In this document: in pieces, positions 1,707-50,433 of the stretch
Layout: each line of letters begins with the position of its first letter
How positions within the stretch are numbered: the stretch's first letter is position 1
DNA from: a virus
Taxonomy: Duplodnaviria > Caudoviricetes
Virus record (IMG/VR): IMGVR_UViG_3300028025_001146
Coordinates: 1 to 50,439 of that record
Reading direction: 5' to 3' (one strand)
Length of the DNA stretch: 50,439 nt
Notes under the pieces: generated by a model
What the model was told of the DNA's origin: nothing
The model's input: only the letters and a program-made list of their open reading frames with translations
Databases searched by the model: none
Made by a program: the position numbers and the translations under genes

Positions 1707-1714
1707 GGACAACC

Positions 1715-1918: not shown

Positions 1919-1920
1919 TC

Positions 1921-2528: not shown

Positions 2529-2530
2529 CC

Positions 2531-7636: not shown

Positions 7637-10600
7637 ATGGCTGATCGTTACTGGGTAGGTGGGGCGGGAACATGGAACACCACCAGCACTACAAACTGGT
7701 CCGCATCAACTGGCGGAGCTAGTGGCGCATCTGTCCCTACCGTAGCGGACAACGTCATCTTTGATCAGGCAGGCACCTACACCGTCACGATGACGGGCGC
7801 TTTGGCGTGTCTAAACATCACCGTCTCCGCAGGCACCGTCACCTTTGCCACTGGCACATCTCCCACGCTAAACATTCGCGGCTCTATGTCGCTGTTGGCG
7901 GGGACGGTGTGGAGTTCCACGGCGGATATTACGTTTAGCAGCACCACAACGGGACAAACAATTACGACCAACGGCGTTAGCTTGGCTGGCAGATTGTTTT
8001 TTAACGGGATTGGTGGGTATTGGACGCTAGGTAGCGCGCTAACATCAACAAACGCTAGCGACTCCGGCTTTGGGGCGGGGACGTTTGATACGGCTGGGTT
8101 TGCATTAACATGTGCTGGTTTTAACCTTAGCTTTGCTTCAAACAATCGAACAATTAAATTAAATAATTCAACGGTTACCCTAAATGGCGGCATATTTTTA
8201 TCTGGCGGCTCTTCTACATTAACATTTGATGCCGGAACATCTCAAATAAATATAACAACGGCGACAAGCAATATTTCAAACAACAGTGTTGCTCCGGCAA
8301 TCACATTAAATTTTTACAACTTTGCGTTTACCTCTTCAGCGGCAGGTAGCCGTTCAATATCTGGCGTCAACACGTTTAACAACTTTGCAGTTACTGGCCC
8401 TGCCGCCGTAGGCACAACAACCGTCTCTTTTGTGGACCAGCAGACCATCAACGGCACCCTGTCCACCACGGGCACGGCAGGCAACCGGCGGGTGTTCTTT
8501 GCCTCCGCTACTTACGGTATCTCTGAAGACCTCGTAGTCAACTCTGCCCCCAGCCTGACAGACGCAGACTTCCGGGGGCTCTATGTCAGGGGCACATCGG
8601 CCCCCATCAGCGGCACACGAATCGGCAACCGTGGCGAGTGCAGGGGCATCACGTTCGATGCGCCAAAGACGGTGTATTGGAACTTGGCAGGCGCTCAGAA
8701 CTGGAGCGCCAACGGGTGGGCTACGACCTCTACTGGAACGCCGTCTACAGACAACTTCCCTTTGCCGCAGGACACCGCCACATTTACCAACGCTGGCTCC
8801 GTGACAGGCACGATTACGCTGGATACGGCCATTGGATACGTGTCAAACGTAGACATGTCAGGCCGCACAACAGCCATGACCATCAGTCTTGCCAACGCCA
8901 TTACTGTCTACGGGAGCTGGGCAAATGGCTCTGGTACAGCGTTTACTGGGACAAATGCGTTTACATTTTCCGGTGGAACAACACAAATTATTACAAGCGC
9001 CGGAGTTGCATTCCCAAATAGTATTTTTATAAATACTTATGGTGGAACAGTTAAGCTGGGGGATGGGTTTGTTTCTACCGCTATATTTTATTTAACCAAC
9101 GGAACACTTGACACAGATGGGAAAAGTTTTAATGTTGGGGCATTAAACTTTGATGTTAGTGGTATAAAAAGGGCTTTGTATCTTAGAAACTCTTCTGTCA
9201 CTGTTGGCGGAATAGATAGCTCTGGCATAACACCGGCTGGGCTAACATTTGATGCCGGTACATCTACGATAAACTTTACACAAAACGGACCGGGCGTTAA
9301 TTTACAGTATTATGATGCAGTATTTACTGCTCCAATATCAGTTGGCTTTGGCTATTTATATGGATCGTTTAGAAATCTGACTGTTACTACCGATGGAGCG
9401 GCTGGCGTTTATTATGCCTATACAACAGGCAACACAATAAGCGGCACATTGTCCATATCTAGCGCAAGCGCTATTTCAAGGTTTCTTCTTCGAACCAATA
9501 CGTTAGGCACATCGGCCACTATCTCTGCCGCTAGTGTCTCGACATTGTCAGATGTTGATTTTGTAGATATAGCGTTTACTACATCGGTTTCTGGTACCCG
9601 CCTTGGGGATGGCGGCGGCAATGCCAACATCACATTCCCTGCGCCAAAAACTGTCTATTGGAATCTGGCCGGGGCGCAAAGTTGGTATTCTGCTGGATGG
9701 GCTACAAGCTCTGGAGGCGCACCAGCAGCAAACAATTTTCCTTTGCTCCAAGATACGGCAGTTTTTGACAATGCCGGGAGCGTAACTGGAACAATAACCA
9801 TACCGTTTTATGGCCATGTGGGCACTATAAATGCTAGTGCTAGAACCACGGCTATGACGTTGGCAATTAGCGCAGGCGTAGATGCTTCTATTTTTGGAGA
9901 TTTAATTCTTGGAACCGGAGTTACAACTAGCGGATCGGGCTCGTCGCTAAGTTTTATTGGTCGTACTACACAAACAATAACGCCTAATGGAAGAACCATT
10001 GTTTGGGCGCCAATTATTGCAAAGTCAACAATTCCAAGTTTACCAGTTACACAGCTTGGAGGCGCATTAACTGTCACTGCAAGCTCCGGTATAAGTATTT
10101 CTGGAAATTTTGACGCAGTTACATATAACGTTACAACGACATCGCTCTCGCTATCTACTGGGACTTTGACAATGGGTTCTGGTACATGGACATTATCAAG
10201 TACTGGTAATGTCTGGACATACATTTCTGGAACGATTTTAAAAGGCACGGCAAATATTGTTCTTTCAAGCACCAGTACGGTGGGGAGAACTTTTAATGGC
10301 GGTGCAAATTCGTACAACCGCCTGACTATTGGCGGAGCCACTGGAACGTCAACTACAACCATTCTTGGAAACAACACATTCACCGAGTTGGCGTCCACCA
10401 AAACTGTTGCACATACGATTGCGCTTGGAACTACGGCCCAGACATTTGGCGCATGGACGGTAACAGGAACCTTGGGTAACGTAGTCACCGTTAGCGGCAC
10501 TGGAACAAACCATGTCATTGCGGGACCAAGGGTTTCAGGTGTGAACTACTTGGCGATGGGTTCGATTGGCTTTACAACAAGCCCCGCAGAGTTCTACGCT

Positions 10601-13600
10601 GGCGTGAACTCAACGGGAACTGGTTCCGGCGTGATCTTGACAGCCGCTCCTGCTGCCCGCACTCTTTATTGGCGGGGTGGCACGGGCAACTGGTCAGATA
10701 CGACCAAATGGGATACTGCCTCCGGCGGTCCCGGCCCTGCTGCCATTCCAACCTCAGCAGACGCAGTAATTTTTAATTCTGCCTCAAATGCCACAGCATA
10801 TACGGCTACGGTTTCTGGTGTCAGCATTGCAAGGTGCGCCTCCTTCAATATAGCTGGCCCAGCAACGGGTAACGTTACTTTTGCGGGCAGCGTGCCAATT
10901 GCTTTTCATGGCGATGTTACGGTTGCTGCGACTGGCGTTACTCGCACATATACTGGGACAATAAATTTGTCTGGTAACGCTAGTCGCACGATTACAACCA
11001 ACGCCGTCACTTTTGCGTCAAACATTACAGTTAACGGTATCGGTTCAACTTGGTCGCTTGGTAGTGCATTGAATATTGGCTCCAGTGGATTAACTGTTAC
11101 AAACGGTTCTTTTGACACGTCCGTAAGCAATTACGCGCTGACTCTTGGTACGATATCTTCTGCAAATTCAAATACTCGCTCCATCACGCTGAATGGCTCG
11201 GCAGTATCTGTTAGTGGCAGTTCTTCTTCGGCTATATTTATCAGCCTGATAAATAATTTAACATTTAACGCCGGGTCATCGCAGATTAACCTAACCAGCG
11301 CAACAACCGGCATAGCATCTGGTGGACTGACATTTAATAATGTTGCATTTACAAACTCTGCATCTGCAACCACGATAGCAATTACCGGCGCAAACACATT
11401 TAACACCTTGTCGTTTGTCGGTCGGGGCACTGTTGGCGTCAACAGGGCTACCTTTTCGGCCAATCAAACAATCTCCACGCTGACCTTGAACGCGGGGACG
11501 ACTGCTGCATACCGTACCATGCTGCAATCCGACGCGATTGGAACTACGCGGACTTTAGCGGTGACCACGCTGACGGCGGGAGCCGCCGACTACGATTTCA
11601 GGGACATTGCCATCACGGGATCGGCTGCGCCTCTGTCGGTTACACGGGCCGGAGATTGCAAGGGCAACAGCGGCATCACATTTTCTGCGGCCAAAACAGT
11701 TTATTACCGGCAAACTGGGTCGGCTGACTGGGGTACTGCAAGCCCGGGGTCTTGGTCATTGACTAGTGGCGGGGCTTTTGATGATACCGCCTTCCCCCTC
11801 CCTCAAGACACTGCCGTTTTCCCTGCCACGACCTATCCGGCCTCAGGCTCTACCACCACCATTCCCAACGGCTACAACATTGGCACCATTGATATGTCGT
11901 TACGCACGACAAACACAATGACGCTGGCGACGACAACTACCACCCTGACGATTTATGGGGACTGGATTAACGGCACCGGCATAACTTTGTCGGGGACGAC
12001 AAATATTACTTTTCCCGGGAGGGGTAGTCAGACAATCACCAGCGCTGGAAGAACATTTACGCAAGCGTTTACCATTGACACCCCCGGCGGATCGGTCACG
12101 CTACAGGACAACTTGGTAGCAAGTCAATCTTTAGCTGGAGTATTGACTCTAACGAAAGGGACATTTGATGCAAACACATCTAATGTCACTTTGTCCGGCG
12201 CGGCTTCATCTGTTAATGCTTCTGGAACTGGAACAAGAACAATAGCTATTGGCTCTGGAACATGGTCAATTGCAGGGACAGGAGGCTGGAATGCTGCTAC
12301 GGCAACTAATCTTTCCGTAACAGGCACCGGTACCATTAGCCTGACAAGTGCGTCCGCCAAAACATTTGCTGGCGGAAACGCCTCTTACTCCGGCATTACG
12401 CTTGACCAAGGCGGTGCGGGCGCCTTGACTATCACCGGCAACAACACCTTCAAGACAATTTCCAATACGTACAGCGCCACGGGCGCTACGTCCATCTCGC
12501 TTGGTAACACTAGGCAGACCCTGACTAACCCTTGGACTGCCACAGGGGCGGCTACTCGGGTTTTGACTGTTAGTGGAACATCCGCCGCATCCCCGGCCAC
12601 ATTGGTTTACACCGGAGCAGGGGAGGCGGCAAATACGGTTGATTACTTGGCCATCAATAACGTTAGGGCGTATGACCTGACCGACGAGTGGTACGCGGGC
12701 GCTAACTCTACCAACGGGGGTTCGCTAGGCTGGTACTTTGTTGCCGCAGGCGGCACGGTATACGCCGCCACAATCATTGAAACGGGAACTGGCACAGATA
12801 GCGTCGTTGCCGGACTTGTTTATCTTGGCACCGTATCGGAGCTTGCCACTAGCTCAGACGCATTTGCTGCCGCCGCCAGCTTTCGCGGGAGCATTTCCGA
12901 AACCGGCACCGGGGCCGACACCATCTCCGCCCAGTCGGCCTTTGGCTCTGCAATTCTTGAGTCCGCGACGATTGCCGATACCAACCTAGCCCGGTTGATT
13001 GCTCTGGCAACAATAACCGAGTCCGCCACGGGAACGGACGCAATTAGCGCTTTGCAGGCGTTGGCTGCGGCGGTTGCTGAGACAGCCACGATCACAGATA
13101 GCCTGTCCGCCCGTGCGGTGTTTATTGGGCTTCTCCAAGAGGCTGCTACCGCCCAAGACTCTGTCAACGCAGCGGGCTCCATCTACAACATCCTGATGCA
13201 GGAGCTTGCAACGGCTCAGGATGCAATAACCGCCAACGCCGCGTTCCAATCCAGCTTGGCCGAGACCGCCACTGGCACGGAAGTCAACAACGCAGCCTTT
13301 ATCCCCTTGGCCACGATCAGTGAGTCGGCCACGATCACGGACGTAGCCAGCGCACTCCAAGCGTTTGCTGCCAGCATTTCCGAGACCTCTGCCGCCTCGG
13401 ACGTGGTTCTGGTGGCCCCGTCGATCTTCAATGCTATTGCGGTTGCTGCTGCCACAGCCATAGACAACTTCAACCCGGCGGGCAGCATCTACAACGTCAC
13501 CGTCCCTGAGAGCGCCACCCTGTCCGACAGCGTGATCGGGGCGTTCCTGTGGAACATCATTGATGACGCCCAGAACGTCACTTGGAACCTTGTCGATGCC

Positions 13601-14698
13601 GCGCAGCCTGCAACTTGGGCGCATGTCGAGGCATCTCAGGCCAGTGACTGGAACATCATCCCGATCACGGGAGTGCTTGGATCGACTTGGTCTTCGTCTG
13701 CGGCGGGTGGCGGCACGGCGATCCTGCTCAACACGTCGCGCTCGCCTGACGGCTATCAGTTTTATGCCGTCAATAGCTATGGTGTCTGGACGGTGCAGCG
13801 CTTCCCGATTGTTGGGCTGTTTAGGGCCGTTAGCTACCTCAACAACCAGTATTTTGTCTATAGCTCTCCCACTATTACTTCGGGGAGTGTGTTGCTTCGC
13901 AGCACAGATGCACTGACGTGGACCCCGGTAACGACCCTGCCTTCTAGCGCCTCCCAAGTCACCGGAATGTTTGCCAATGGTTCGACGATTGTTGCGGTTT
14001 ACAACGGCCAGACATACGTGACCACGGACAACTGCGCCACATGGACGGCGGGGTCGGCCATGCCAAGTGCGCTTCAAGGCAGTATTGTTGGGCTGAATTA
14101 CGGCGCGGGCCTCTACATTTTGTGCGATGGGCGGCGCATCTTCTCCAGCCCTGATGCGCTGACGTGGACTACTCGCGCAACAATTACGTACAGCTTAGGA
14201 GCCTCTGGGTATCGCGGCACTGTGGCATGGGACGGCTCCAGATTTGCGGTGGTGGCTCGATCTAGCACCGCCTCAGTAGCGCCAGCTTTCCGCACAAGCA
14301 CCAACGGCACTACATGGACGACGTTTACCCCGCCAGCACCTATTAGCTCGCAGGCTGTTGCGGTTCTATGGGATGGCGCGCAGTTTGTCTTTGTTTGCGG
14401 CGGTGCGGGAGCTACCCCGGCCTCGTTCTATTCGGCTAACTCCACGCTAACGACGTTTACCCTGCTTGGTAGTGTGCCGGGTTTCTTCTACGTTCCAACC
14501 TCTTTGGCCCAATACTTGTTTGGCAAGTTTGGCAGCCAATACGTTATTCCGGGGTTTGCCTCTCCCAACAATGGGCCGTTTTACACGTCGCCCAACTTCT
14601 CGACATTCAACGCGGTTATCCCTCCGCTCCCAACGGATGCTTGGGGTAACATCGCAACAGATCAGACGCAAACGTGGGGCATCATTCCCCAACAGTGA
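7637..14698 (+). CDS. giant tail fibre/adhesin with five ~335-aa repeats, a stalk and an Asp-box domain
   Basis: 2353-aa T/G/S/A-rich ORF; repeated YW...W...P...D.A.F units; SxDxxTW boxes near the C-terminus. Confidence 0.8.
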   Translation: MADRYWVGGAGTWNTTSTTNWSASTGGASGASVPTVADNVIFDQAGTYTVTMTGALACLNITVSAGTVTFATGTSPTLNIRGSMSLLAGTVWSSTADITFSSTTTGQTITTNGVSLAGRLFFNGIGGYWTLGSALTSTNASDSGFGAGTFDTAGFALTCAGFNLSFASNNRTIKLNNSTVTLNGGIFLSGGSSTLTFDAGTSQINITTATSNISNNSVAPAITLNFYNFAFTSSAAGSRSISGVNTFNNFAVTGPAAVGTTTVSFVDQQTINGTLSTTGTAGNRRVFFASATYGISEDLVVNSAPSLTDADFRGLYVRGTSAPISGTRIGNRGECRGITFDAPKTVYWNLAGAQNWSANGWATTSTGTPSTDNFPLPQDTATFTNAGSVTGTITLDTAIGYVSNVDMSGRTTAMTISLANAITVYGSWANGSGTAFTGTNAFTFSGGTTQIITSAGVAFPNSIFINTYGGTVKLGDGFVSTAIFYLTNGTLDTDGKSFNVGALNFDVSGIKRALYLRNSSVTVGGIDSSGITPAGLTFDAGTSTINFTQNGPGVNLQYYDAVFTAPISVGFGYLYGSFRNLTVTTDGAAGVYYAYTTGNTISGTLSISSASAISRFLLRTNTLGTSATISAASVSTLSDVDFVDIAFTTSVSGTRLGDGGGNANITFPAPKTVYWNLAGAQSWYSAGWATSSGGAPAANNFPLLQDTAVFDNAGSVTGTITIPFYGHVGTINASARTTAMTLAISAGVDASIFGDLILGTGVTTSGSGSSLSFIGRTTQTITPNGRTIVWAPIIAKSTIPSLPVTQLGGALTVTASSGISISGNFDAVTYNVTTTSLSLSTGTLTMGSGTWTLSSTGNVWTYISGTILKGTANIVLSSTSTVGRTFNGGANSYNRLTIGGATGTSTTTILGNNTFTELASTKTVAHTIALGTTAQTFGAWTVTGTLGNVVTVSGTGTNHVIAGPRVSGVNYLAMGSIGFTTSPAEFYAGVNSTGTGSGVILTAAPAARTLYWRGGTGNWSDTTKWDTASGGPGPAAIPTSADAVIFNSASNATAYTATVSGVSIARCASFNIAGPATGNVTFAGSVPIAFHGDVTVAATGVTRTYTGTINLSGNASRTITTNAVTFASNITVNGIGSTWSLGSALNIGSSGLTVTNGSFDTSVSNYALTLGTISSANSNTRSITLNGSAVSVSGSSSSAIFISLINNLTFNAGSSQINLTSATTGIASGGLTFNNVAFTNSASATTIAITGANTFNTLSFVGRGTVGVNRATFSANQTISTLTLNAGTTAAYRTMLQSDAIGTTRTLAVTTLTAGAADYDFRDIAITGSAAPLSVTRAGDCKGNSGITFSAAKTVYYRQTGSADWGTASPGSWSLTSGGAFDDTAFPLPQDTAVFPATTYPASGSTTTIPNGYNIGTIDMSLRTTNTMTLATTTTTLTIYGDWINGTGITLSGTTNITFPGRGSQTITSAGRTFTQAFTIDTPGGSVTLQDNLVASQSLAGVLTLTKGTFDANTSNVTLSGAASSVNASGTGTRTIAIGSGTWSIAGTGGWNAATATNLSVTGTGTISLTSASAKTFAGGNASYSGITLDQGGAGALTITGNNTFKTISNTYSATGATSISLGNTRQTLTNPWTATGAATRVLTVSGTSAASPATLVYTGAGEAANTVDYLAINNVRAYDLTDEWYAGANSTNGGSLGWYFVAAGGTVYAATIIETGTGTDSVVAGLVYLGTVSELATSSDAFAAAASFRGSISETGTGADTISAQSAFGSAILESATIADTNLARLIALATITESATGTDAISALQALAAAVAETATITDSLSARAVFIGLLQEAATAQDSVNAAGSIYNILMQELATAQDAITANAAFQSSLAETATGTEVNNAAFIPLATISESATITDVASALQAFAASISETSAASDVVLVAPSIFNAIAVAAATAIDNFNPAGSIYNVTVPESATLSDSVIGAFLWNIIDDAQNVTWNLVDAAQPATWAHVEASQASDWNIIPITGVLGSTWSSSAAGGGTAILLNTSRSPDGYQFYAVNSYGVWTVQRFPIVGLFRAVSYLNNQYFVYSSPTITSGSVLLRSTDALTWTPVTTLPSSASQVTGMFANGSTIVAVYNGQTYVTTDNCATWTAGSAMPSALQGSIVGLNYGAGLYILCDGRRIFSSPDALTWTTRATITYSLGASGYRGTVAWDGSRFAVVARSSTASVAPAFRTSTNGTTWTTFTPPAPISSQAVAVLWDGAQFVFVCGGAGATPASFYSANSTLTTFTLLGSVPGFFYVPTSLAQYLFGKFGSQYVIPGFASPNNGPFYTSPNFSTFNAVIPPLPTDAWGNIATDQTQTWGIIPQQ

Positions 14699-31400: not shown

Positions 31401-32678
31401 TACAAGAAGTTGTACGAGACGTTGATGGACCACGCACAGCTAGAGCATACGATGGCTCGTGAGGTGATGGAGGGTCGCCGCCAGACTACGAATGACTTTG
31501 TGGGGCTGAAGGCTCGCATCCTTGATGGCATCTCTATTCCGTTCGTGGCAACGGAAAAGTACAACCGTGCGGTCACTGCGATTGCTGCCTACGATCTCGC
31601 TCGCAAAACAATGGGCGAAGAGCAGGCTATCCAATACGCACTGAATACCGTAAAAGATGTGCATACATCCGGTATGGCCGCAACTGGACCAAAGTGGATG
31701 CAAGCGCCTCTAGGTCGCCTGTTCTTTACCTTCAAGTCGTTCGTTTGGAACAGCGCATACATCATGGCGCGAGCCTTCCATCAGGCGTTCAGAGGCGAAG
31801 ACCCGGCTATCCGCAAGGCAGCGCAGCGCCAACTGCTCGCCACCTACGGTATGGCTACGGTGCTCACTGGCATCAAGGGCATGCCGTTCTACGGCGCGGT
31901 CTCGGTGCTGGCTAACATGCTCAACGCCCTGTTCGGGGATGAAGATGAGCCGTTTGATTTCGACGAGTTCATGCGCAATATCTTCGGCGAGTTTATGTTT
32001 AAGGGCGCATTCAACTATGCCACCAACATTGAACTTGCAAACCGCGCCGGTATTGCTACCGACCTGATCTTCCGCGACGACCCCCGTGGTGTGGCCGAGC
32101 ATGGGTACGTGCTATCCGCGATGCAGCAAGCGTTCGGTCCGATCGGTTCGATTGCCGTGAACTCTGGACGCGCAGCGGAGTTGTTCCAGCAGGGTGAAAT
32201 TGTTCGTGCGTTGGAGACCGCTGGTCCTAGCTTCTATCGCAACGCTTCAAAAGGGATGCGCTACCTGCTTGAGGGCGCTACTACCATCAAGGGCGACCCA
32301 ATCATGGAAGACATTAGCGCTTACAACTCGCTGATGCAGGTGATCGGTTTTGCTCCGGCTACCCTTTCCAGTCAATACGAGCGGGTGCAAGCAGCTAAGG
32401 GGTTTGAGCGTGAAGTCAACGCACGGCGGACGCAATTGCTGAACAAGTATGAGATGGCTCGCACCTCTGGGGACTACGACCTGATGTCCGAGGTGATGGA
32501 CCAAATCCAGCAGTTCAACGAGACCCGCCCGTCCAAGCGGATTACGAAGGACACCTTGGAGCGTTCGCACCGAGCACGGCTTGCCGCTGAGAAGGACATG
32601 ATTGCCGGGGTGCGCTTTGACAAGAAACTGCGCCCGGAGATTGAAGAACGGTTCTTTGATCCCTACGAAGAGGATTAA
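25404..32678 (+). CDS. giant multidomain ejection (polyvalent-type) protein with L,D-transpeptidase-like and zincin domains
   Basis: 2424 aa; IAIH...SYGCFN; HELVH...EFAAE; last gene of the virion arm. Confidence 0.8.
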   Translation: MPIYRVQAPNGKIYKVEGPKDADPNTLFGFVQQQLDAERFEEMRRGEYGPGLMETLTSGVSRGAKRLGSTFGDVLPAMVASGLGYDEYAKRQMEEAAATEREIQATNRPLFSSYKQIQGPLQALKYGIEAVGEQVPNIGTSLIPGLGVAGIATRLGLGVAGRAAAMGAGTFLGSYSQNAPEVFQNIYEATGKMETGAALIFGAASAALDSILPASLAGKITGPAKVGLIEKVLEKSGMDRGLLRSVTASVATGIPTEGLTEGAQEAISIAAEKFIADNPQIFGSKEWERIMESSVRGAVAGGAFSSVGGVADAARAGSERKEAYAQALERRGARQLAAEVRRSSASIEEILAQNPQMELPGFELGAASSLMPAAPAKGKAPKELKGKQAELFTPEGELTAAQQKQATREEKLAANQARQQAQRDAAEVKSAQAKLKKYLAAKQTTLPGFDAESIRALQEAAQQQAAQSAGQGDLFAGQPPAAAPAPEVAPVAPVPIAPIPDVPAPAPVEPEPAPAPEPEPAVVEVAPAPEPVSIPEDTVSETTVPEPTVRAKAQPLAPEDAPTKIDDTKAFGKIFGIGPTALILRADGPLAGKDISNPGDAAEVQRVLEAYASGKPAKGAAEKIETYLQRPEFQGVPNVAGNVEQPVGAGAGVPSEPVAGVPTETAGPAEPSGVVPAGAVAEQPVGREEQQPGALTAEAAPVTVVEQRKAKDDVGNNVTEVKFSDGSVNQIIRLNSIEGFGLSGWHDANVRGAGRGYLGENKADAIQTLVKQKTEEAAQSAPAQAPAPIPKFVPELGKRAKNDIVKAEQGVTKAAEDQAEFIAQVDNDVNAMLVGRMREIGRSMGVPDSELPAIDYRGTEYHSVLRIAPLLTQYRDSQEALRTSVGTPQEAKNRRELVLIGQSVADSNPDAFQFFDQLRNLDLKPQERLLSQMNRQALVLFDADAKEVVEKIKAELQEQAAADGIPAPVVDPEDAAADAFADALYEKTGVSIYSTPEQRRMREKNQYAIDAKIKREVANLSGSQSRALVTAYGAPVDSDQFLLRLKQDIIALVTQGADAIAKGIRVAVQKIASGVLSVAIIFNPNATLPNFSFDLPKAYSQTVTQTVKIQDVVPADAIAKMSPLAQMVYENMAPTAKKSGKGFIVADKPSGMIHFFKPDGKVLLQDAVLTGKDKGDVLGKVSSLKGGPKITPAGQFSLQVADTAEYAGGKLLNLVESRDETGYIAIHAAYLGNPAEKRAERLQRIQQGAAKSGESRVSYGCFNTDHAPFLNTVLPNMEMFNGGMIFVLPDAQEKTASMFPAEYKTQTQTFTGYEKTAKAPSSARDMAAREEKGLPPERVAQAEQTTRLFLPAYQGPAFNAADAALARSGDLNGLTRSLMDQIKDPTIKHVLRKIRSLNLNAKVVIGAVEDGKAGSYDPATNTITLDPTNGLNAHTFIHELVHAAISNVLASPNHPLTKDFSKFFMQIQDRLGAAYGAQDLQEFAAELVGNPSFQAVLKTIKTPRSENMFRRVLHSVAEFFGFGNKSAFDTGLDFIEKALDITNGVDATPAQKMFLGMGNFPAIADIGRAMPALTRQAADDAKNVFSNLNEGGGFKAAAFGLLRLDNLRDMYGRQLPSIQKLLDALELRTGIQERRINDANEKFKRFMQVQRKEPAAMKRMNDIAIDARLVEVDLLNPNFKPTAANSAEYTRLSQAFRSLPSDVQDVYRTIRNDYDAAFGQYRKILKDAAEQASPSLAKRLAEQFQTQKPIVGYIPFLRQGNFWVEYTDPATGDPVVSSFESFRERQQFIDQMLKGRNHRVYQNVQDAQFSGEKLPPTHFIMQVMSQLRSNGASQAQLDGVYQAYLATFPGESLMKQFMKSKNRLGMERDIVRGYGDLMVRYARKLANSEYIPQIDRAVRQIQSEAQSGGDPTLMAVAQNITDQSAFFHNPNFNTFVHTATALSYFEYIAGNISSALINLTSLPMLVYPLLTGRFGWGDAMNALTGAGRTAMNDWGKTTKYKKLYETLMDHAQLEHTMAREVMEGRRQTTNDFVGLKARILDGISIPFVATEKYNRAVTAIAAYDLARKTMGEEQAIQYALNTVKDVHTSGMAATGPKWMQAPLGRLFFTFKSFVWNSAYIMARAFHQAFRGEDPAIRKAAQRQLLATYGMATVLTGIKGMPFYGAVSVLANMLNALFGDEDEPFDFDEFMRNIFGEFMFKGAFNYATNIELANRAGIATDLIFRDDPRGVAEHGYVLSAMQQAFGPIGSIAVNSGRAAELFQQGEIVRALETAGPSFYRNASKGMRYLLEGATTIKGDPIMEDISAYNSLMQVIGFAPATLSSQYERVQAAKGFEREVNARRTQLLNKYEMARTSGDYDLMSEVMDQIQQFNETRPSKRITKDTLERSHRARLAAEKDMIAGVRFDKKLRPEIEERFFDPYEED
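27316..27489 (+). CDS. candidate overprinted 57-aa protein in the +1 frame of the giant gene
   Basis: AAGGAG at 27304-27309, ATG at 27316; helical Leu-rich sequence. Confidence 0.5.
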   Translation: MLQEMSNNQLEQALAYLASPLPESPPKPLDQLSQVEWYLLEQLLSNLLEEKNSSPVH

Positions 32679-32709
32679 AAGAAAAGGCCCCGCTTGTTAC
32701 GGCGGGGCC
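32677..32709 (-). terminator. Rho-independent terminator at the convergence point
   Basis: 8-bp stem GGCCCCGC/GCGGGGCC followed by TTTTCTTTT on the - strand. Confidence 0.85.
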
Positions 32710-32738
32710 AAAATCCTCAAACAGGAGGAGAAGAGTGC
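32677..32738 (-). ncRNA. candidate anti-RBS small RNA (~60 nt)
   Basis: lies between a sigma70-like promoter and the terminator; 5' part complementary to RBS regions of several - strand genes. Confidence 0.55.
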
Positions 32739-32947
32739 GGGGGGACTATAGCATCCAGCCGCCATACGCGCAACCCGTAGACCTTATTCTCTATAACCTG
32801 TTTGCAGGCTACGGGTATTCTCAAGCGCCGGGCCTCCTGCATGACAAACCGCTGCACATCACGGCGGTCGATGCAGGGAATGAAGAAGGATGTGCCCGGG
32901 TGGAACTTGTCCCACTCAATTAGCAGCGGTATCCCCAGCACCTGCAT
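32717..32947 (-). CDS. small hypothetical protein, possibly DNA-binding
   Basis: MQVLGIPLLIEWDKFHPGTSFFIPC...GLRVWR; ATG at 32947. Confidence 0.65.
   Translation of the reverse strand: MQVLGIPLLIEWDKFHPGTSFFIPCIDRRDVQRFVMQEARRLRIPVACKQVIENKVYGLRVWRLDAIVPPHSSPPV
32745..32773 (-). promoter_or_regulatory. sigma70-like promoter for the candidate sRNA
   Basis: TTGCGC-17nt-TATAGT with extended -10 TG. Confidence 0.55.
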
Positions 32948-35777
32948 CGCTGTCCAGTAGCACGTTCTCGTTGAAGAAGTCCAGCTTGGTCGTGTCGAAG
33001 CACATGGCATTGACTGGGGCCTGCGTGTTGGCAACGGTGCCTGCCGTCATGCGTTTCTTCTTCACGCCTTGCAATGCGCCGCTCTTGCGGTATGGGGCAA
33101 TGACTTCTTCAAAGTTAGCCATGACCTTAGAACAGTCCTCCCGGAAGGTCCGGGCCACTACATACAACATCTTGGTGTCAGGCTCATAGCGAGCCGTCAG
33201 CGCTCCGCGTGGCTCACGGATCGGCGCATACTCCAGCCCGGTGCGGTTGTCCCGGTCACCATTGATGACAAGAATTTCGTGGAAGTGTCGTTGCAGGAAG
33301 CCGCCCAAGAACTCCTCGTTATCAAACATGTACTCATGGGTGCGACTGCGAGTCTCCTTGATCAGATTGACGGCGTAGTCAAACACTGGCTTGATCGGAA
33401 TGTCGTGCAGCCCAAGGTGCTTGGAGATGGCACCACCTGCTAGCGACAGCGAAGCCATGAGCGCCCAGTACCGCTCCGAGTTGCGGATGCCAGCCCCCTG
33501 CTCGACGCGCAGTTGGATCTCAGCCAGCTTAGCCTGCACCATGGGTAGTTGACCTACAAGGGCTTGGGCAAACGGATCAATTGCATGCCCGTAGTTATTC
33601 ATCAATCGCCCAAAGTGTTGCCGTGCCCACGTTGCATCGTCCCGGGCGTCTGGCTTTACGTTGATCTCCATGATCCGTTTTAGCTCTCCATCTGGAAACC
33701 CCTTGATAGATAGCAGTGCGTCAGTGACGTACCGGTTGGACGATGTGATCAGCCCGGTTTGGAACTTGGTGTTGTTATTGCGCTCGACGTTCTCATGCTG
33801 CTTCATGCGGTTCTTACCGCGCCCCGAGGTCACGTCATAGACCTGCTGAGACATCTGGTCGGGCGGCATGTTGGTGATCTCATCCATCGTCACCGCAAAG
33901 TTCTGCATTGTGCCGAGACGCTGCATGCGGGCGTTGTATGTGTCCTTGGGAGCAAGGAGCAGTTCCTTGGGGCGACCGTAGATACTGTTGATGGCTTGCA
34001 GAATGGTCGTCTTACCTGACCCCGACTCGCGGCTCACTAGGTTGAGCAGGAAGCCGTCCAGTATGGTGAACTTCATGAGCATCGTGCCAAAGCCCATGAA
34101 CAGGGCAAACGCCCGGTACTCCATACCCTCACGCCCGTATATATTGATCGTATCTTTCCACTCGTGGAAGTCGCCCTTGGCTTGGAACAAGGGCACGTGC
34201 GGTAGCGTGGGGCCTGACGGTGGGCTGTAGACGATCTCGGTTGCGCGGATCTCTCTGTCTCCAATGATGATGCCGGAGTTGTCTTCCAACCAACCAAACT
34301 GCTTGTGAGCTTTTTCCGCTCTGCCGTTCATCTGCAACTCCTCGACCCATTTCGCAACATACTGCATAAGCACGTCCTGTTTCTTGCCCAGCGCGGTGAT
34401 GCCATAGGAGGCAACCGTCGCAATAAATTTCTCCTTCGACAGCACGTTGGCCAGCGGCATGATGAAGTCTCTGACACCATCTTTAGGTAAGTGCAGTCGG
34501 AGTAGCAAGGTCTCACCCAAGTCGGGGTCCTGCATGCGCTTAACCACATAGAAGTCGTACGGGTACACCACGTCATCAATGTCTTCCCCGTCCTTGTTCT
34601 GGGTATGGACGAAGATGCCGCCAGACTTGCCACGGAAGAACGGGAACGGGAACTTAGGGATAACGTAGGTCTTGGCCTCTTTAGTCTCTGGCTCAAGGTC
34701 AGTGACGATGCTGTCTTCTTCGGTAGCTTCTATGATCTCGCGGCCCAACTGGATCGGAGATGTAATCTTCAGGGTGCAGCCCTCACACACAGTGGGGTTC
34801 AGTTTCTTAAACGTCTCGCAGGTGTACGGACCCTTGGTGTCATTGGCCTTGCGCTCTGTGGTGCCGTGGTCGTAGTCCGGGTGCTTCTTGGAGATAGCGT
34901 GAATCGCCTTGTCCCGGTCCGAGCACTGCTGGGCAATTGACAAGCCAGCACGCCACAACGGTTCTTCCAACTCGTGCTGATGGTCGTAGATGTAGTTGAT
35001 CTGCGCACAGCCCTTACCCTCGGCGGACTTGATCAGAATGGTCTTAAACTTCGACTCGCTAGCGCCCATCAGGGCCAGCGTCAGCGGGTCCATCTGCCGT
35101 TTGAACTCCGACTTGTCCAGCATGGACAAGATGTCCTGCGTCGGCTCTAGCAGTTCCTTGATTCTGGCAACTGTGAGCGGTGGCGCGACATACAGAATCT
35201 CCACCGGTATTGGGTTGGTTGGGTCCTTGAGGTGATTTGTTTCAGGGACTCGCAACACACGGGCCGCGTCAGCAGGCACTGCGTAGTCAATATCAAACTT
35301 GTGCTCAGTGCACAGCTCCTTGAGGCGCTCGGCATGCGGCTTCCAATCCTGCCGCGTCATGGGTTCTTCCATCACCCAGTACACATGCGCCCCGCGCCCA
35401 GACCGGACAATGCTTGGCTTGGGTAGACCTGTAGCTTTGCAGAACGCGCGTAGGGCAACCAGCCCGTCGTCCAGCGTGGCATACGGTTTGTCCGGACCGC
35501 AATCCAGATCAATAAAAAACGACTTGAGAGATATCGCGTTGTTAGCGTAGCGGCCGTTTATTCTCGGGCCGAACTTCGCCATCGCATAGAACGCATTGAA
35601 CCCGTTGGCTTGCAGCGTATCAGCCTGATCACTCAACTCGTCCAAAGAGGTGGCAAACCGTTGGCGCACCTCATCATCTTTCTGTCCGTCAACTTTCTTG
35701 TTCCCCCAGCTGCAATAGTGCTCCCCTTCTTGTAGGGGTGGCAATACCATTGCGAGGAACTCACTCCTCGTTGTCAT
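32916..35777 (-). CDS. primase-helicase fusion (AEP/RepB-like primase plus DUF927-type helicase)
   Basis: FFIDLD, SGRGAHVYW, ARVLRVP; Cys cluster; Walker A SGSGKTT, Walker B VTMDE. Confidence 0.85.
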   Translation of the reverse strand: MTTRSEFLAMVLPPLQEGEHYCSWGNKKVDGQKDDEVRQRFATSLDELSDQADTLQANGFNAFYAMAKFGPRINGRYANNAISLKSFFIDLDCGPDKPYATLDDGLVALRAFCKATGLPKPSIVRSGRGAHVYWVMEEPMTRQDWKPHAERLKELCTEHKFDIDYAVPADAARVLRVPETNHLKDPTNPIPVEILYVAPPLTVARIKELLEPTQDILSMLDKSEFKRQMDPLTLALMGASESKFKTILIKSAEGKGCAQINYIYDHQHELEEPLWRAGLSIAQQCSDRDKAIHAISKKHPDYDHGTTERKANDTKGPYTCETFKKLNPTVCEGCTLKITSPIQLGREIIEATEEDSIVTDLEPETKEAKTYVIPKFPFPFFRGKSGGIFVHTQNKDGEDIDDVVYPYDFYVVKRMQDPDLGETLLLRLHLPKDGVRDFIMPLANVLSKEKFIATVASYGITALGKKQDVLMQYVAKWVEELQMNGRAEKAHKQFGWLEDNSGIIIGDREIRATEIVYSPPSGPTLPHVPLFQAKGDFHEWKDTINIYGREGMEYRAFALFMGFGTMLMKFTILDGFLLNLVSRESGSGKTTILQAINSIYGRPKELLLAPKDTYNARMQRLGTMQNFAVTMDEITNMPPDQMSQQVYDVTSGRGKNRMKQHENVERNNNTKFQTGLITSSNRYVTDALLSIKGFPDGELKRIMEINVKPDARDDATWARQHFGRLMNNYGHAIDPFAQALVGQLPMVQAKLAEIQLRVEQGAGIRNSERYWALMASLSLAGGAISKHLGLHDIPIKPVFDYAVNLIKETRSRTHEYMFDNEEFLGGFLQRHFHEILVINGDRDNRTGLEYAPIREPRGALTARYEPDTKMLYVVARTFREDCSKVMANFEEVIAPYRKSGALQGVKKKRMTAGTVANTQAPVNAMCFDTTKLDFFNENVLLDSDAGAGDTAAN

Positions 35778-35860
35778 CCGCCGTCCTTGTTATGTCGCCG
35801 TCAAAAAGAAAAAGGCAGGGATGCGACGGCACATCCTTTTCGGGAGCGACCCTAGCCTCC
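35778..35860 (-). promoter_or_regulatory. structured leader RNA upstream of the primase-helicase
   Basis: nested stems plus U-tract; loop GCCGTC complementary to two downstream GACGGC copies, one overlapping the SD. Confidence 0.5.
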
Positions 35861-35894
35861 TCTAACTCTTGGAATCGCTAACCACTGCGTAGGG

Positions 35895-37442: not shown

Positions 37443-37474
37443 TGCACTCTCCTTCGTTTGTAAAAGGTGGAATA

Positions 37475-37503: not shown

Positions 37504-39047
37504 GTGTTCTCCGTTAAATTTTTGTAAAGATCAATCAGGCGTGTGTGGATGTCCACCTTGTCCGAGAGCATGCTGTAGATGCGCTTCTCGACGGGACTGC
37601 CTTGGATGTGCACCACCGTGCATGGGTTGCGTTGCCCCGCGCGGTGCACTCGTGCGTTGGCTTGCAGATACGTCTCTGTAGAAGTGATCGGACCCCACCA
37701 CACAACTACATTCGCTGCGTGTAGCGTCACGCCATGCGCCGCAGCTTGTGGCTGGATGACCAGCACGTGCGGGTCCTTCTCTGTCTGGAACTTCGCAAAC
37801 ACTTCGGTGCGCTTGTTGACCGAGACGCCGCCGTGTATGACCTCGCAGCTAATCTTGTTTGCGCGTAGCTCGTCAGCGATGATCTCGATCGCGTGTCTGA
37901 AAGGGGCGAAAACTATCACCTTGTGGCTGGCCTCTTCGATCACCTCCAGCAACGCGGTCATGCGCGTCTTGGCATCGAACTCGACCACATCACCAGTATC
38001 CGAGTAAACCGCTCCGCAAGACAGTTGCAGCAGCTTGTTTAGATTTGCCGCCGCATTGACGGTCGTAATCTCCTCACCAGCGGCCACGGCCATCATGTCC
38101 TTGCGTAGCTTGTCGTAGAACTTCTGCTGTTGTGGAGTCAGCGGCACTTCCCGCGTGGTGTATGTCATCTCCGGCAGGTCGAGGCACTCTTCCTTGGTGA
38201 ACCGGATGGCTGGCTGTAGCGCCTCGTGCACGGTCTGCTCAGAGGATTTCTTGGGCACCCACTTGAACTGCGTGATCTTGTGCATGACTTGATCGCGGAA
38301 TGACCCGAAGAATTTCGGCACGCCCGAGGGGTTGATGATCTTTGCCAACCCATATGCGTCAGTGGGTGACTGCGATGCCGGAGTGCCCGTGAGCATCCAC
38401 ACCCACATGTCCGGGGTGATGACCGAGTTCAGCGTCTTCCACCGTCTGGTAGTGTGCGTCTTGTATGCGTTGGCTTCATCGACAACAATCAGATCGAAGC
38501 CGCCGTTCATGATCTCGTCCTTGATGATCTCCAGCCCATCGAAGTTGCAGATGACATACTCGGCACCCGAGCGGACAGCAGCGATGCGCTTGTCCTTTGA
38601 GTAGCTGTGCGCGATTGCGCAGGTGCGGTGCATGGCGAACTTGAACAGGTCTGCTTCCCACGCCGACGATAGGATGGACAGTGGGCACAACACCAGAACG
38701 CGGCGGATCACCCGAGTCTGAATTAGGTAGTCTGAAGCCCAGATGACGCTGGAGGTCTTGCCCGTGCCCTGCTCGTTGAAGCAGAACGCTCTGCGGTGCA
38801 TGGTCAGGAACGCCGCCGTCGTTCGCTGATGTGCAAACGGTTTGTACAAGCCGGGCCAGTTGTACTTCCCTTCGATCGGTGAGGGCACATTCTTGAGCTT
38901 CAGGTTCTTGAGCACCTGCGCTTCCTCTAGCCCCCACTTGACCAGCACTTCGTGGTCACCTACCTGCTTGGCCTTGGGGATGACCGTCGTGATGCGCCCG
39001 GGTTCTTTGACTCGTAGCAGCAACGCCTTGTTTTCTATGATCTGCAC
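37500..39047 (-). CDS. SNF2-family (SF2) helicase
   Basis: EQGTGKT, VVDEA, LTGTP, QANARVHRAGQ; likely GTG start at 39047 with GGAG. Confidence 0.9.
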   Translation of the reverse strand: MQIIENKALLLRVKEPGRITTVIPKAKQVGDHEVLVKWGLEEAQVLKNLKLKNVPSPIEGKYNWPGLYKPFAHQRTTAAFLTMHRRAFCFNEQGTGKTSSVIWASDYLIQTRVIRRVLVLCPLSILSSAWEADLFKFAMHRTCAIAHSYSKDKRIAAVRSGAEYVICNFDGLEIIKDEIMNGGFDLIVVDEANAYKTHTTRRWKTLNSVITPDMWVWMLTGTPASQSPTDAYGLAKIINPSGVPKFFGSFRDQVMHKITQFKWVPKKSSEQTVHEALQPAIRFTKEECLDLPEMTYTTREVPLTPQQQKFYDKLRKDMMAVAAGEEITTVNAAANLNKLLQLSCGAVYSDTGDVVEFDAKTRMTALLEVIEEASHKVIVFAPFRHAIEIIADELRANKISCEVIHGGVSVNKRTEVFAKFQTEKDPHVLVIQPQAAAHGVTLHAANVVVWWGPITSTETYLQANARVHRAGQRNPCTVVHIQGSPVEKRIYSMLSDKVDIHTRLIDLYKNLTENT

Positions 39048-39059
39048 TCTTGCTCCAAA

Positions 39060-42780: not shown

Positions 42781-42806
42781 CACTCTTCTCCTACGGTTTG
42801 GGTTTG

Positions 42807-46822: not shown

Positions 46823-47106
46823 TTCTGCACTCCTGTTTGAGATTTAAGTTCGTGGTACTCGTCGTATGTGAGATACACATACATCATGTGTTCGGTAAAT
46901 TTCCTTCCGATAACTTCTCCTCTTTGGTCGTGATTGATGTCACACATGCGCAGCATGGCCGCTCGTTCCCGCAACCACTCTGGCACCTTCTCGCTCTCTA
47001 AGGTATCGGTACGAATCGCCGCGTTGTCAAGAATGTTGACATACTCAACACCCCCGTCGTTTCGCGTGTGTGCAATTGCCATGTACCTGCTGATGCCCAT
47101 TTCCAT
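46819..47106 (-). CDS. hypothetical protein, paralogous to the C-terminus of the upstream gene
   Basis: AMLRMC...GRK shared. Confidence 0.6.
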   Translation of the reverse strand: MEMGISRYMAIAHTRNDGGVEYVNILDNAAIRTDTLESEKVPEWLRERAAMLRMCDINHDQRGEVIGRKFTEHMMYVYLTYDEYHELKSQTGVQK

Positions 47107-47135: not shown

Positions 47136-47983
47136 CTGTTAGTGGCCTTAAAATCATCAGGGTTTACGTGAATCCAGAACCGATTGTCTGAGACTTTGCG
47201 ACCCACCTCGGGAATGTACTCACCCTGAGTGCACATGCGCAACATCGCAACTTGTTGTTGCACGCACTGCGGCGCTTCTTCCAGCGTCTGATATGTCCAT
47301 GCACCAGCTTCCATGTCGCCTTTGTTCTCCACTGCCACCATCACGGATTCATCGGGCTGGATGTACACATACATCGGGACACTCACGATTGCCTTGCGGC
47401 GCTTCGCTTCACTGTACAGCTCGATACCGTCTATGATCACGCGTCGAAACTTCTCACTGCGAAACTGAACGCCGATTGAATTCAGGTACATCAGTTCCTC
47501 GGCAACATCGTCCGCAGATATCTTGCCCACGATTGAATTGAACTTACTGCGCGGCTCAGACCGCCAGACCGCATCACTCGCTTCCGGGCTGTTGTCAATG
47601 TCCTTCCACATGATCTCTTGCGCTGTGAACGGTTTGGCATAGTCACGCAACAGCTTGACCAGCTTGGCTGGGTCGGTCGTCTCCTTCACATGGTAGTTAG
47701 CGTTGTGAGACGCGTACTTCTGGTTCTGGATCAATCGGCTGCGCAAACCGTAGATGCGACGGTTCTTGGTATCGAAGCTCTCGCAGTCTAATATCGCAAG
47801 GCACTTATGTGCATTGGTCTGCGTTGTAGGGAAACGCGTATCAACAAACCGCACCACCGATGCGCGCCCATCCTCGGACACCACATCAATCGGGAACCGG
47901 CTCACATGTTTGCGGCGTAACTCAACGATCGCATCCCGCACTTCGGTAGGCGTATCAGCGGACAAATTTACATTTAGCATCAC
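47132..47983 (-). CDS. hypothetical protein
   Basis: 283 aa; RBS GGAGAAGAGTGATG. Confidence 0.75.
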   Translation of the reverse strand: MMLNVNLSADTPTEVRDAIVELRRKHVSRFPIDVVSEDGRASVVRFVDTRFPTTQTNAHKCLAILDCESFDTKNRRIYGLRSRLIQNQKYASHNANYHVKETTDPAKLVKLLRDYAKPFTAQEIMWKDIDNSPEASDAVWRSEPRSKFNSIVGKISADDVAEELMYLNSIGVQFRSEKFRRVIIDGIELYSEAKRRKAIVSVPMYVYIQPDESVMVAVENKGDMEAGAWTYQTLEEAPQCVQQQVAMLRMCTQGEYIPEVGRKVSDNRFWIHVNPDDFKATNS

Positions 47984-48294
47984 TCTTCTCCTGTTGCTTT
48001 ATCGATTGCTGCTCTGGCTATATCTATCCAGTCCCACCATTCCTGCTCCGTAGCCCCATGATGCTGGGGCATAGTCATCAGCGCGTTGAGCAAATCCGGT
48101 GCGGCCGATATCAGTCGTGCGTTGGCTCGCTGTTCCTGCGGCGGAATGGTCATCCGTGTCGGGATGTTGGCGACTGTTGTGGAATGCACCCCACGTTTGC
48201 GCACGGTGACGCTGAATGGGTTGGTCTTCCAATTGTTGTTCTCGTTCAACAACCACGGCCCCGGTGTGTGCGTGGATGGTTTAACTTGCATCAC
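47980..48294 (-). CDS. hypothetical phage protein (TPGPW...ANARLI.AAPDLL)
   Basis: common phage early-region motif. Confidence 0.75.
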   Translation of the reverse strand: MMQVKPSTHTPGPWLLNENNNWKTNPFSVTVRKRGVHSTTVANIPTRMTIPPQEQRANARLISAAPDLLNALMTMPQHHGATEQEWWDWIDIARAAIDKATGEE

Positions 48295-48309
48295 TCTTCT
48301 CCTTGTTGT

Positions 48310-49176: not shown

Positions 49177-49187
49177 GGCACTCTCCT

Positions 49188-49208: not shown

Positions 49209-50411
49209 AATTGCTACCGTTTTACCGATCTCGCTCACCACATCCGTAGTGATACCCCACAGTGTTGGGCACTGCCACCCCTCGCCCCACGAACTCACAT
49301 ACCCATCAGTCAGGATCACCGCGCACTCGGGCTTGAGTTTCTTCGCTGCGATGTAGTCCACGATGCACTGCGGGTCTGTGCCACCACCGCCTCGCGGCTT
49401 GGTGCTAGACAACAAGTTGTCCAGTTGGTCTTGCTCATACTTCTCGTGCTGGCACACTCGCGTATCCCAGTACAGCAGGTCGATACCCTCGGGTCGCACC
49501 GTCTCGCAGATCTTCTTAAGCTCCGAGAGGAACTCGCCGATCTCCTGCGGCCCGATAGACCCAGACATATCAATACCCACTGCGATGCGCCCAACGGACT
49601 CACCGATCAAGCTAGGCATATAAACATCTTCACCGATCCACCTACGGGATGGCCGCCTCCAAGTGCTCTCGTCTTTGTCCATGCAGAACGAAGTCACGAA
49701 CTCACGCATCGCCTCACGCCAATCTACCTTGGCCTCGGTCAACTCGGCGATCTCACGCGGCACATTGGCAGACATCTTCCCAGCTAGAATCGCGCCCTGC
49801 CTCAGTGCTTGGTCAACATCACGGGCCAGACCTTCCTTCTCCTCGGTCGATAGACCCTCGGCTTCTTCCCAATCATGGTCATCAAACCCACCAGCACCAC
49901 CGCCCTCGGTCACAGGTACATCCGTACCCTGCTGATCACCAGCAGTCTTCACATTGATAGACCCGTTGTCCTCCGCTTCCTTCTTAAGTCTGCGGAATAC
50001 CTCACCAGCATCAAGGCCCCTGAACTTGAAGTCCAGCAGGCCCTGCTTGGGTAGCGCCACATCAATCCCGTTAGGGTCGCTGTCATGGATCAAGATGTTG
50101 ATCACATAGTCGCAAGCCATGTTCGCAAGCTGGGGCCACTCCTTGTACAGGTGTTGCCACATGGTCGTATGGCGGAACGCCTTGTGCAGGTTCTCGTGCA
50201 GAATCAGAGCGCGTAGCTCCTTGTCCGACAGACCCTCGCTGAACTTGCGTCCATACTTAGTGTCACGCCCGTTAGTACAGGCAGTGGGCACATCGTCATC
50301 GACCGAGGTCTTGCCGACCATCAGGATGCCCGAGTACAGGCAGTACTTCGGATTCTTCATTAGCCATACATGTGCCTTCTGCACACGCTGCTCGACAGTC
50401 AATACACTCAT
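49203..50411 (-). CDS. metallopeptidase-vWA protein (DUF2201-like)
   Basis: TACTNG, HENLH, N.ACD..IN; MIDAS DMSGS, GGGTD, LTDG. Confidence 0.88.
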   Translation of the reverse strand: MSVLTVEQRVQKAHVWLMKNPKYCLYSGILMVGKTSVDDDVPTACTNGRDTKYGRKFSEGLSDKELRALILHENLHKAFRHTTMWQHLYKEWPQLANMACDYVINILIHDSDPNGIDVALPKQGLLDFKFRGLDAGEVFRRLKKEAEDNGSINVKTAGDQQGTDVPVTEGGGAGGFDDHDWEEAEGLSTEEKEGLARDVDQALRQGAILAGKMSANVPREIAELTEAKVDWREAMREFVTSFCMDKDESTWRRPSRRWIGEDVYMPSLIGESVGRIAVGIDMSGSIGPQEIGEFLSELKKICETVRPEGIDLLYWDTRVCQHEKYEQDQLDNLLSSTKPRGGGGTDPQCIVDYIAAKKLKPECAVILTDGYVSSWGEGWQCPTLWGITTDVVSEIGKTVAIN

Positions 50412-50412
50412 T

Positions 50413-50433
50413 TGTTAACTCCTGTTAATAAAT
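50413..50433. promoter_or_regulatory. palindromic operator-like site, copy 3
   Basis: ATTTATTAACAGGAGTTAACA on the - strand, contains the SD of the vWA gene. Confidence 0.5.

Follow-up and report, generated by a model that had tools for sequence, protein, structure and literature searches.

The question raised by this locus is whether a short unit of promoter-like site, seed, hairpin and terminator in the virus record IMGVR_UViG_3300028025_001146 encodes a small RNA (sRNA) that acts on genes of the same phage. The window analysed here is the whole of this stretch, 50,439 nucleotides (nt), a linear record that is about 80% complete. Its plus strand carries the virion genes, up to a gene for a DarB-like protein of 2424 amino acids (aa) ending at 32678, and the minus strand, between 50411 and 32717, holds genes of the early and replication classes, among them those for a DNA polymerase, an exonuclease, an SNF2 helicase and a primase/helicase. 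The sRNA-like unit sits where these two arms converge. A first-pass annotation of the sequence had proposed that one sRNA from the minus strand pairs with the ribosome-binding sites (RBSs) of early and replication genes and silences them co-ordinately, either for an early-to-late switch or for a dormant state. From the comparisons described below, we consider it likely that the unit is the gene of a trans-acting sRNA of about 60 nt that would block translation of early and replication genes in the same phage through the site GGAG...GAGUGC, as a delayed feedback. The unit probably represents a real, conserved and functional family of phage sRNAs.

The promoter-like site TTGCGC-17-(TGC)TATAGT, with its 17-nt spacer ending in TGC, and the 8-bp terminator with its U-tract were found at all the coordinates that had been given for them. 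Beyond what had been noted before, the promoter and the seed lie inside a conserved open reading frame (ORF) of 76 aa, and the second 12-nt pairing stretch sits in the hairpin. The 62-nt stretch predicted as the RNA has nine free 5' bases, a hairpin of five pairs, a terminator stem of eight pairs and the U-tract, and folds at -25 kcal/mol (z -4.1). The mean probability of being unpaired is 0.80-0.95 for seed positions 1-5. Among 87 sequences C2 and T5 of the seed are invariant, and G1, A3, C4, C6 and T7 are each kept in at least 90%, while the -35-like hexamer is mostly TTGCGN or TTACGN in 96 distinct relatives. The terminator also closes the replication operon and abuts the stop codon of the convergent DarB-like gene. 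In a strict consensus scan it ranked 1st of 18 terminators, and the promoter of the unit was not listed.

All of the proposed pairing sites are present in the window. The 12-mer AGGAGAAGAGTG occurs exactly at three minus-strand gene starts, each time directly 5' of an ATG, CTCAAACAGGAG occurs exactly before the 145-aa gene, and the four sites called bulged or partial read as they had been described. The raw counts are unremarkable, since a search allowing 2 mismatches found AGGAGAAGAGTG 7 times against 3.4 expected (6/100 shuffles) and CTCAAACAGGAG 3 times against 4.0 expected; the pairing signal rests in the exact matches and in their positions. Pairing energies were calculated with RNAduplex and co-folding, in place of IntaRNA, for 68 hand-set start regions, 33 early and 35 late. 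The six best early duplexes have a mean of -20.1 kcal/mol, a value reached by 0/300 full shuffles of the seed and also by 0/300 shuffles of its 5' 8 nt in which the anti-Shine-Dalgarno core was held fixed. The predicted pairing extends beyond the generic Shine-Dalgarno (SD) core, as had been claimed. Early and late start regions differ in energy (p 6e-5), and when the 5' 18 nt are paired with the 68 starts, all of the five strongest duplexes are early (47980, 48291, 42780, 39047 and 37442). With the folding of both partners included, net binding is -10 to -20 kcal/mol at the eight named sites, about -17.5 kcal/mol (co-fold terms) at that of the 145-aa gene, and -1.5 to -10 kcal/mol at twelve late starts; the starts of the 307-aa gene and of the primase gave -11 and -9 kcal/mol respectively. 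When a longer 5' region (25-40 nt) was used, noise in the duplex energies prevented a ranking of targets. Early sites are therefore enriched over late-gene RBSs and shuffled seeds pair less well, as the proposal had required.

Features of the predicted sRNA gene and its predicted target sites in the window
Feature	Position	Strand	Remarks
Conserved 76-aa ORF	32717..32947	-	no assigned function; behind primase; 30 homologues
Whole unit	32773-32677	-	promoter-like site, GCACUC seed, hairpin, terminator
-35-like hexamer TTGCGC	32768..32773	-	encoded by Leu-Arg codons of ORF motif GLRVW
-10-like hexamer TATAGT	32745..32750	-	TANANT in 94/96 distinct sequences
Predicted 62-nt small RNA	32677..32738	-	predicted start G32738, 6 nt behind -10 box
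5' seed GCACUCUUCUCCU	32726..32738	-	unpaired GCACU toehold and anti-Shine-Dalgarno stretch
First hairpin	32714..32729	-	UCCUC/GAGGA, loop CUGUUU; contains second pairing stretch CUCCUGUUUGAG
Intrinsic terminator	32677..32709	-	stem 32709-32686, 8/8 G-C pairs, U-tract
Best-conserved predicted target AGGAGAGUGC	37444..37453	-	before 127-aa gene (37442-37059)
Predicted target	39044..39056	-	spans GTG start (39047) of SNF2-type helicase; duplex -20.4 kcal/mol
Predicted target, exact 12-mer	42781..42792	-	before short hydrophobic ORF, ATG 42780
Predicted target of hairpin stretch	46830..46841	-	before 145-aa gene, ATG 46822; exact match
Predicted target, exact 12-mer	47981..47992	-	before 282-aa gene, ATG 47980
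Predicted target, exact 12-mer	48292..48303	-	before 103-aa gene, ATG 48291
Predicted target AGGAGAGUGC	49178..49187	-	before 288-aa DUF3150-like gene; GAGTGC in 13/19 orthologues
Weaker predicted site AACAGGAG	50419..50426	-	before DUF2201 (metallopeptidase/vWA) gene

Conservation of the unit was followed in relatives collected with an alignment of the 30 ORF homologues, which gave 482 stretches in the viral and 139 in the metagenome collection; the 80 best from each were retained. Together with the window, 162 loci were examined, some of them duplicated between the collections. The seed and unit are present in 154 of these loci, one is cut by the end of its contig and seven lack the seed. 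The residues encoded over the -10 box take 27 tripeptide forms while the box itself stays, and the seed G stands exactly 6 nt behind it in 82 of the 96 distinct sequences. The 3' tail of the ORF is a read-through of promoter and seed, and in 19/154 loci the stop codon precedes the seed, which is retained nonetheless. RNAalifold on a MAFFT alignment recovered only 3 terminator pairs, with the stems out of register, and single-sequence folds were used instead: each of the 87 units folded in this way shows two or more hairpins, GCACU being unpaired for the most part, and 64 of them have at least five free 5' bases. A pattern made of the -10 box and the seed only, independent of the ORF, was also searched in 2.9 million viral contigs. 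It found 35 stretches, every one with a terminator and located behind an ORF of the 76-aa type. Because the -10 box, spacing, seed and folds are kept beyond what the ORF encodes, the unit is, on these sequences, conserved as a nucleic-acid element and not as protein. The protein itself has no Pfam match, and its model (pLDDT 87) has no match in the PDB at E<=0.001.

Two simpler explanations of the unit were tried and rejected. One takes it for the tail of a protein, which does not account for a -10 box and seed that persist where the residues change or the stop codon comes earlier. The other takes it for a decoy copy of a protein-binding site, and here the strand is wrong, the unit being the complement of the site.

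We compared early and late genes in 26 longer records, using a simple gene caller of our own and those genes in which 4 or more bases match the SD sequence. GAGTGC, the complement of the seed, is present in 87/705 early (same-strand) start regions and in 1/308 late ones, and GAGTG placed strictly upstream of the start codon was counted 89 times in early and 2 times in late genes. The motif recurs at the same genes, namely those of 127 aa (GAGTG in 25/25), 282 aa and 357 aa (11/15), the DUF3150-like gene (13/19) and the helicase gene. The 357-aa gene lies upstream, outside the window, and its product is presumably an AAA ATPase. The orthologue group of the 282-aa gene has the second-strongest mean pairing (19 records); the 145-aa gene has no orthologue group present in at least 5 records. 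When the five best sites of each record were paired with the record's own seed and with those of other records, own pairing was better for early genes (z -3.1, 16 records) and not for late ones (z +0.4, 7 records). Of the early sites that had been proposed, the best conserved is the one at 37444-37453, which had been counted as partial, and not one of the three perfect 12-mers.

The site of the 127-aa gene largely follows the presence of the unit. GA[GA]TGC stands at this start in 61/70 distinct RNA-positive pairs and in 0/7 loci without the seed; at the helicase start it is found in 29/61 distinct pairs. Five of the seven seedless loci belong to one clade, and the other two (L149 and L165) have divergent units. 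In a quick primase tree (75 rows, three of them from the clade without the unit) this clade branches from within the RNA-positive phages and has L083, which keeps the site, as its sister, with a support of 99 in the Shimodaira-Hasegawa-like approximate likelihood-ratio test (SH-aLRT). In the clade, which comprises L004, L147, L148, L151, L159 and L206-L211, the entire unit and terminator are deleted at the end of the small ORF, and the two convergent stop codons overlap in the palindromic GAGGATTAATCCTC. The distal early region was sought in G029-G033, four of which lack the unit, and no match was found in any of them.

Own-versus-cross pairing gave z -5.0 for the 127-aa gene (-4.2 over 22 seed classes) and z -3.9 for the helicase (-2.5 by seed class), and was not significant for the primase, the 98-aa gene and the exonuclease. 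In 18 disjoint pairs of neighbours, hand-picked from the tree as a control for ancestry, own pairing was better than swapped pairing in 7 versus 3 pairs for the helicase (p 0.024) and in 11 versus 3 for the 307-aa gene (p 0.014). For the 127-aa, helicase and 307-aa genes taken together it was better in 12 versus 4 pairs (p 0.002), and for three control genes in 6 versus 10. Individual lineages show matched changes of seed and site: L101 has the seed GCAUUCUCCU with the site AGGAGAAUGC, and in L046, L012 and L069 the own seed gains 2.6-6 kcal/mol each over the seed of the window. In the CUAGUUCUCC clade the pairing runs across the start codon with AGGAGAAUACUAUGAGUGC. The seed GUUAACUCCUGUU of G006 has eight exact complements of 12-13 nt at early gene starts, and G011 and G016 have a matched site of 13 nt each. 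Seed-site covariation is therefore well indicated by these comparisons, yet from a modest number of independent events. A side observation concerns L149 (10190-10260), whose divergent unit lacks GCACUC: it pairs at -16.9 kcal/mol with its own changed site AAGGAGAACACGG, versus -12.5 with the site of the window.

Several results weigh against our interpretation. Loss of the site counts as a single event in evolution, with L149 and L165 as two divergent loci besides. The raw own-versus-cross values of the 307-aa and helix-turn-helix (HTH) genes (z -4.4 and -3.5) vanish by seed class, and shared ancestry therefore inflates the raw test. Among the sister pairs the 127-aa gene alone gave 6 own, 4 swapped and 8 uninformative ties (p 0.12), the combination of three genes was picked after the single-gene results were known, and genome-wide the five best pairings were better with the own seed in only 6/11 record pairs (p 0.32). 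L016, L083 and L032 are counter-examples that pair better with the seed of the window. The ACAGGAGTTAA motif matched by G006 is also present in records whose RNA lacks that seed (G001, G015 and G012), and so predates the match. Early and late energies did not differ significantly in 4/9 records, and a motif count made without regard to position, 6-8 kb upstream, separated positive from negative loci weakly (mostly 1-4 versus 0-2). Finally, no listed metatranscriptome assembly piece covers the unit and there is no RNA-run depth there, although contigs cannot show a 60-nt RNA either way. These assemblies (7 river runs and 1 of unrecorded kind) hold pieces of close relatives over early and replication genes, the longest measuring 1070 nt (21 differences), and the libraries may contain DNA. 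In sum, the idea that one sRNA co-ordinately silences early and replication genes is partly supported: enrichment, shuffles and conservation favour the predicted pairing, and so does covariation, through joint changes and loss of the site with the unit, though more weakly once phylogeny is controlled.

If the unit does encode such an sRNA, the following sequence of events can be envisaged. The host sigma-70 polymerase would transcribe the RNA from the promoter inside the ORF alongside its targets, and 3' ends of the operon may add to the pool. The RNA and its targets have promoters of one type, so that control would arise through the build-up of the stable RNA, whose level would increase further as genome copies rise. 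GCACU would nucleate on a GAGUGC that stands between SD sequence and start codon or spans the latter, the hairpin would then open, and the duplex would cover the SD sequence and block initiation. Since the main target is the first gene of the replication operon, its block could perhaps give polarity along that operon. The resulting delayed negative feedback would cap the 127-aa Gam/Gp157-like gene, the helicase and the AAA/vWA early cluster, and late genes, which are without the motif, would remain free. A wider idea is that these virulent phages run the early-to-late transition partly without a protein regulator, using a GAGUGC address next to the SD sequence of early and replication genes that is read by one sRNA from the end of the replication operon, with new seeds capturing further RBS classes, as the eight sites of G006 may illustrate; should the design recur in other phages, it would amount to a general RNA timer of lytic development that has not been described before. 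We offer this tentatively, with rather more doubt than belief.

Other uses of the RNA, or none, have to be set against this. It could provide immunity or superinfection exclusion, by silencing early genes of a related phage that enters the cell later, or by holding a non-integrated carrier state. We regard this as unlikely, although seed variants differ by lineage and match their own sites, as heteroimmunity requires, the unit is dispensable in one clade, and a function in immunity or exclusion is described for c4 of P1/P7 and for STnc6030 (PMC12197685). The family-wide GCACUC core would however mean broad and not lineage-specific exclusion, and five complete relatives gave no match to a tyrosine or serine recombinase (integrase or resolvase). 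This absence also makes the dormant lysogenic state put forward by the first-pass annotation less likely, while leaving room for plasmid-like prophages such as P1. GTDB, taken as one genome per species, contains no prophage relative, only a single weak and unrelated match. It is rather improbable that the pairing occurs in cis, with the 3' end of the replication-operon messenger RNA (mRNA) folding back over 4.7 kb onto the RBS of the operon's leading gene, so that a separate sRNA is not required. The best-conserved site is indeed the RBS of the leading gene in the operon closed by the unit's terminator, and in L031, and likewise L099, the GGAGAGUGC site stays promoter-proximal, before an inserted gene; against this, a -10 box is conserved at fixed spacing to the seed, and many of the sites are found at a distance of 10-24 kb, farther upstream than the promoter of the operon itself (37503).

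An RNA directed at the host is a less probable explanation again. The unit would then be the phage counterpart of betaproteobacterial 'toxic' double-hairpin sRNAs and would shut down mainly host mRNAs, and its fit to phage sites would be a side effect of general complementarity to SD sequences. Its best Rfam match is RF02278 (33 bits, gathering 50) with a similar architecture, RNAs of this type pair with many host RBSs (PMC5688073, PMC11722255), and avoidance of the motif by late genes would be expected if escape were needed. However, the conserved GCACUC lies outside the SD complement and is absent from the RF02278 consensus UGUCUCC, shuffling the GCACUC region with the anti-SD core kept destroys the signal (0/300), and the early sites of the phages both carry and track the complement of the seed. 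It is scarcely credible that the unit has no RNA function at all and consists of terminator and protein tail alone, GAGUGC then being a favoured spacer or protein-binding site. The -35 box does coincide with conserved codons, and the transcript is not among contig assemblies, which cannot show an RNA of this size, but a -10 box and seed that outlast residue changes and the ORF itself, a unit that is the complement and not a copy of the site, and decay of the site where the unit is deleted all speak against it. The clade that lost the unit and the lineages with swapped seeds are natural controls at hand for the reading that we prefer, an sRNA acting on the phage's own early genes.

The 127-aa gene is the first behind a consensus promoter TTGACA-17-TATAAT and is followed by the 307-aa gene, the HTH gene and the primase gene, up to the terminator of the unit. 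Its product has weak matches to Pfam DUF7307 and to Mu Gam/Gp157-like proteins, below cut-off, and fold matches among the viral models of BFVD to Gp157 and to a host-nuclease inhibitor; a wide PDB search gave coiled-coil matches only. A role in DNA-end protection or recombination would be a guess. In L031 (5270-5550) and in L099 an extra gene between the operon promoter and the 127-aa gene took over the GGAGAGTGC ribosome site. The primase leader (35778-35862, minus strand) matches Rfam int-alpA above gathering, at 37.5 bits. The loop GCCGUC of its hairpin complements GACGGC, which is present twice downstream, one copy being in the primase RBS, and such a loop, accompanied by GACGG once or twice, is found in 73/80 distinct RNA-positive leaders and in 4/5 from seedless loci. 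This looks like a separate cis switch or pseudoknot acting on translation of the primase.

Strong sigma-70-type promoters are predicted on the minus strand at 47134-47106, 39270-39243 and 37503-37475. The first of them (TTGACA-18-TATAAT) ends just 5' of the ATG at 47106, a position that suggests a leaderless mRNA for that gene. A repeated, partly palindromic early RBS motif, TTAACAGGAGTTAAC, occurs in the early region of G006, at 50411-50430 of the window and in G001, G012 and G015, whether or not the RNA matches it, and is possibly a second regulatory signal. On the plus strand, an ORF of 2353 aa (7637-14698) has no PHROG or Pfam match, the GC content is lower at 8-12 kb, and the product is probably a tail or adhesin-like protein. 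A series of short lysine-rich ORFs at 910-3036 shares C-terminal motifs such as RGKTKGRMV and GGSASSRADG. The family consists of uncultured freshwater phages, whose complete members are 61-65 kb long, two of them with terminal repeats. No close cultured relative was found, the best helicase match being at 38.8% and the single match of the 127-aa protein at 26%. From the TTGC -35 box (PMC4603805), together with the RNA architecture, we infer that the host may be a betaproteobacterium.

Comparison with known systems places the predicted RNA close to several of them. Of the traits expected of a trans-acting sRNA, the conserved sequence has a predicted promoter of its own, a terminator and a short exposed seed, and complementarity to distant start regions has been kept in evolution, partly also under the sister-pair control. 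Host sRNAs such as DapZ and MicL arise from the 3' ends of host genes by a promoter internal to the ORF, share the terminator of the mRNA and act on host targets. By description, the phage unit resembles them in having its promoter inside a coding sequence and a terminator in common with the mRNA.

The unit has no Rfam match at gathering. RF02278, the model of the betaproteobacterial toxic sRNAs, gave 33.0 bits in the window, short of its gathering score of 50, and 23-29 bits in 4/11 relatives scanned. The double hairpin, CU-rich unpaired 5' region and intrinsic terminator of RF02278 are all present, and its 5' consensus UGUCUCCUCC is not, the 5' end of the phage family being GCACUC. Six loci (L039, L040, L074, L119, L124 and L136) contain UGUCUCCUC within an additional stem. 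This stretch equals the 5' end of the host consensus, and in the clade of L039 and L124 it is internal. The members of RF02278 (ncS27, BdhR1 and Bordetella S17S; PMC5688073, PMC11722255, PMC4603805) are similar in size, about 55-70 nt, with a CU-rich free 5' end, a hairpin, a terminator and many RBS targets, but they are chromosomal regulators of metabolism that begin with UGUCUCC. Unlike them, the phage unit lies in a phage ORF and, among the viral contigs scanned, only behind that ORF.

The c4 RNA of P1/P7, 77 nt long, uses loop sequences to control the mRNA of an antirepressor in a temperate phage (PMC12197685). It likewise is a short phage RNA acting in trans on a phage RBS region, with sequence differences corresponding to specificity, whereas here a 5' seed would address a motif at many early genes 5-24 kb away, in phages without an integrase match. 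The Rfam C4 model has no row at gathering over the window and none at E<=10 over 32500-33000, and no predicted target matched an antirepressor family, most targets lacking a known function. SviR of the PLE satellite has two seed regions and several targets in its own element, with translational repression shown for one (bioRxiv 10.1101/2022.04.08.487710). It is alike, by description, as one sRNA with multiple own targets and predicted RBS covering, and differs in being encoded by a satellite and in targeting also the helper phage ICP1, where the phage unit would target its own early program. A description of an RNA with the GCACUC seed was not found in the literature covered, which leaves out subscription journals and takes in only part of the Fremin 2023 catalogue (PMC10690425), which may hold it. 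The predicted RNA would work like c4, SviR and the double-hairpin sRNAs, yet it is a member of no Rfam family.

A 2024 review considers the role of noncoding RNAs in lytic phages still to be elucidated (PMC10884466), and phage sRNAs described in a 2025 review have host mRNAs or individual genes of lysogeny or lysis as their targets (PMC12197685). If our reading is true, one RNA that addresses a whole temporal class of the phage's own genes through a co-evolving RBS motif would add a new layer of phage developmental control to these systems.

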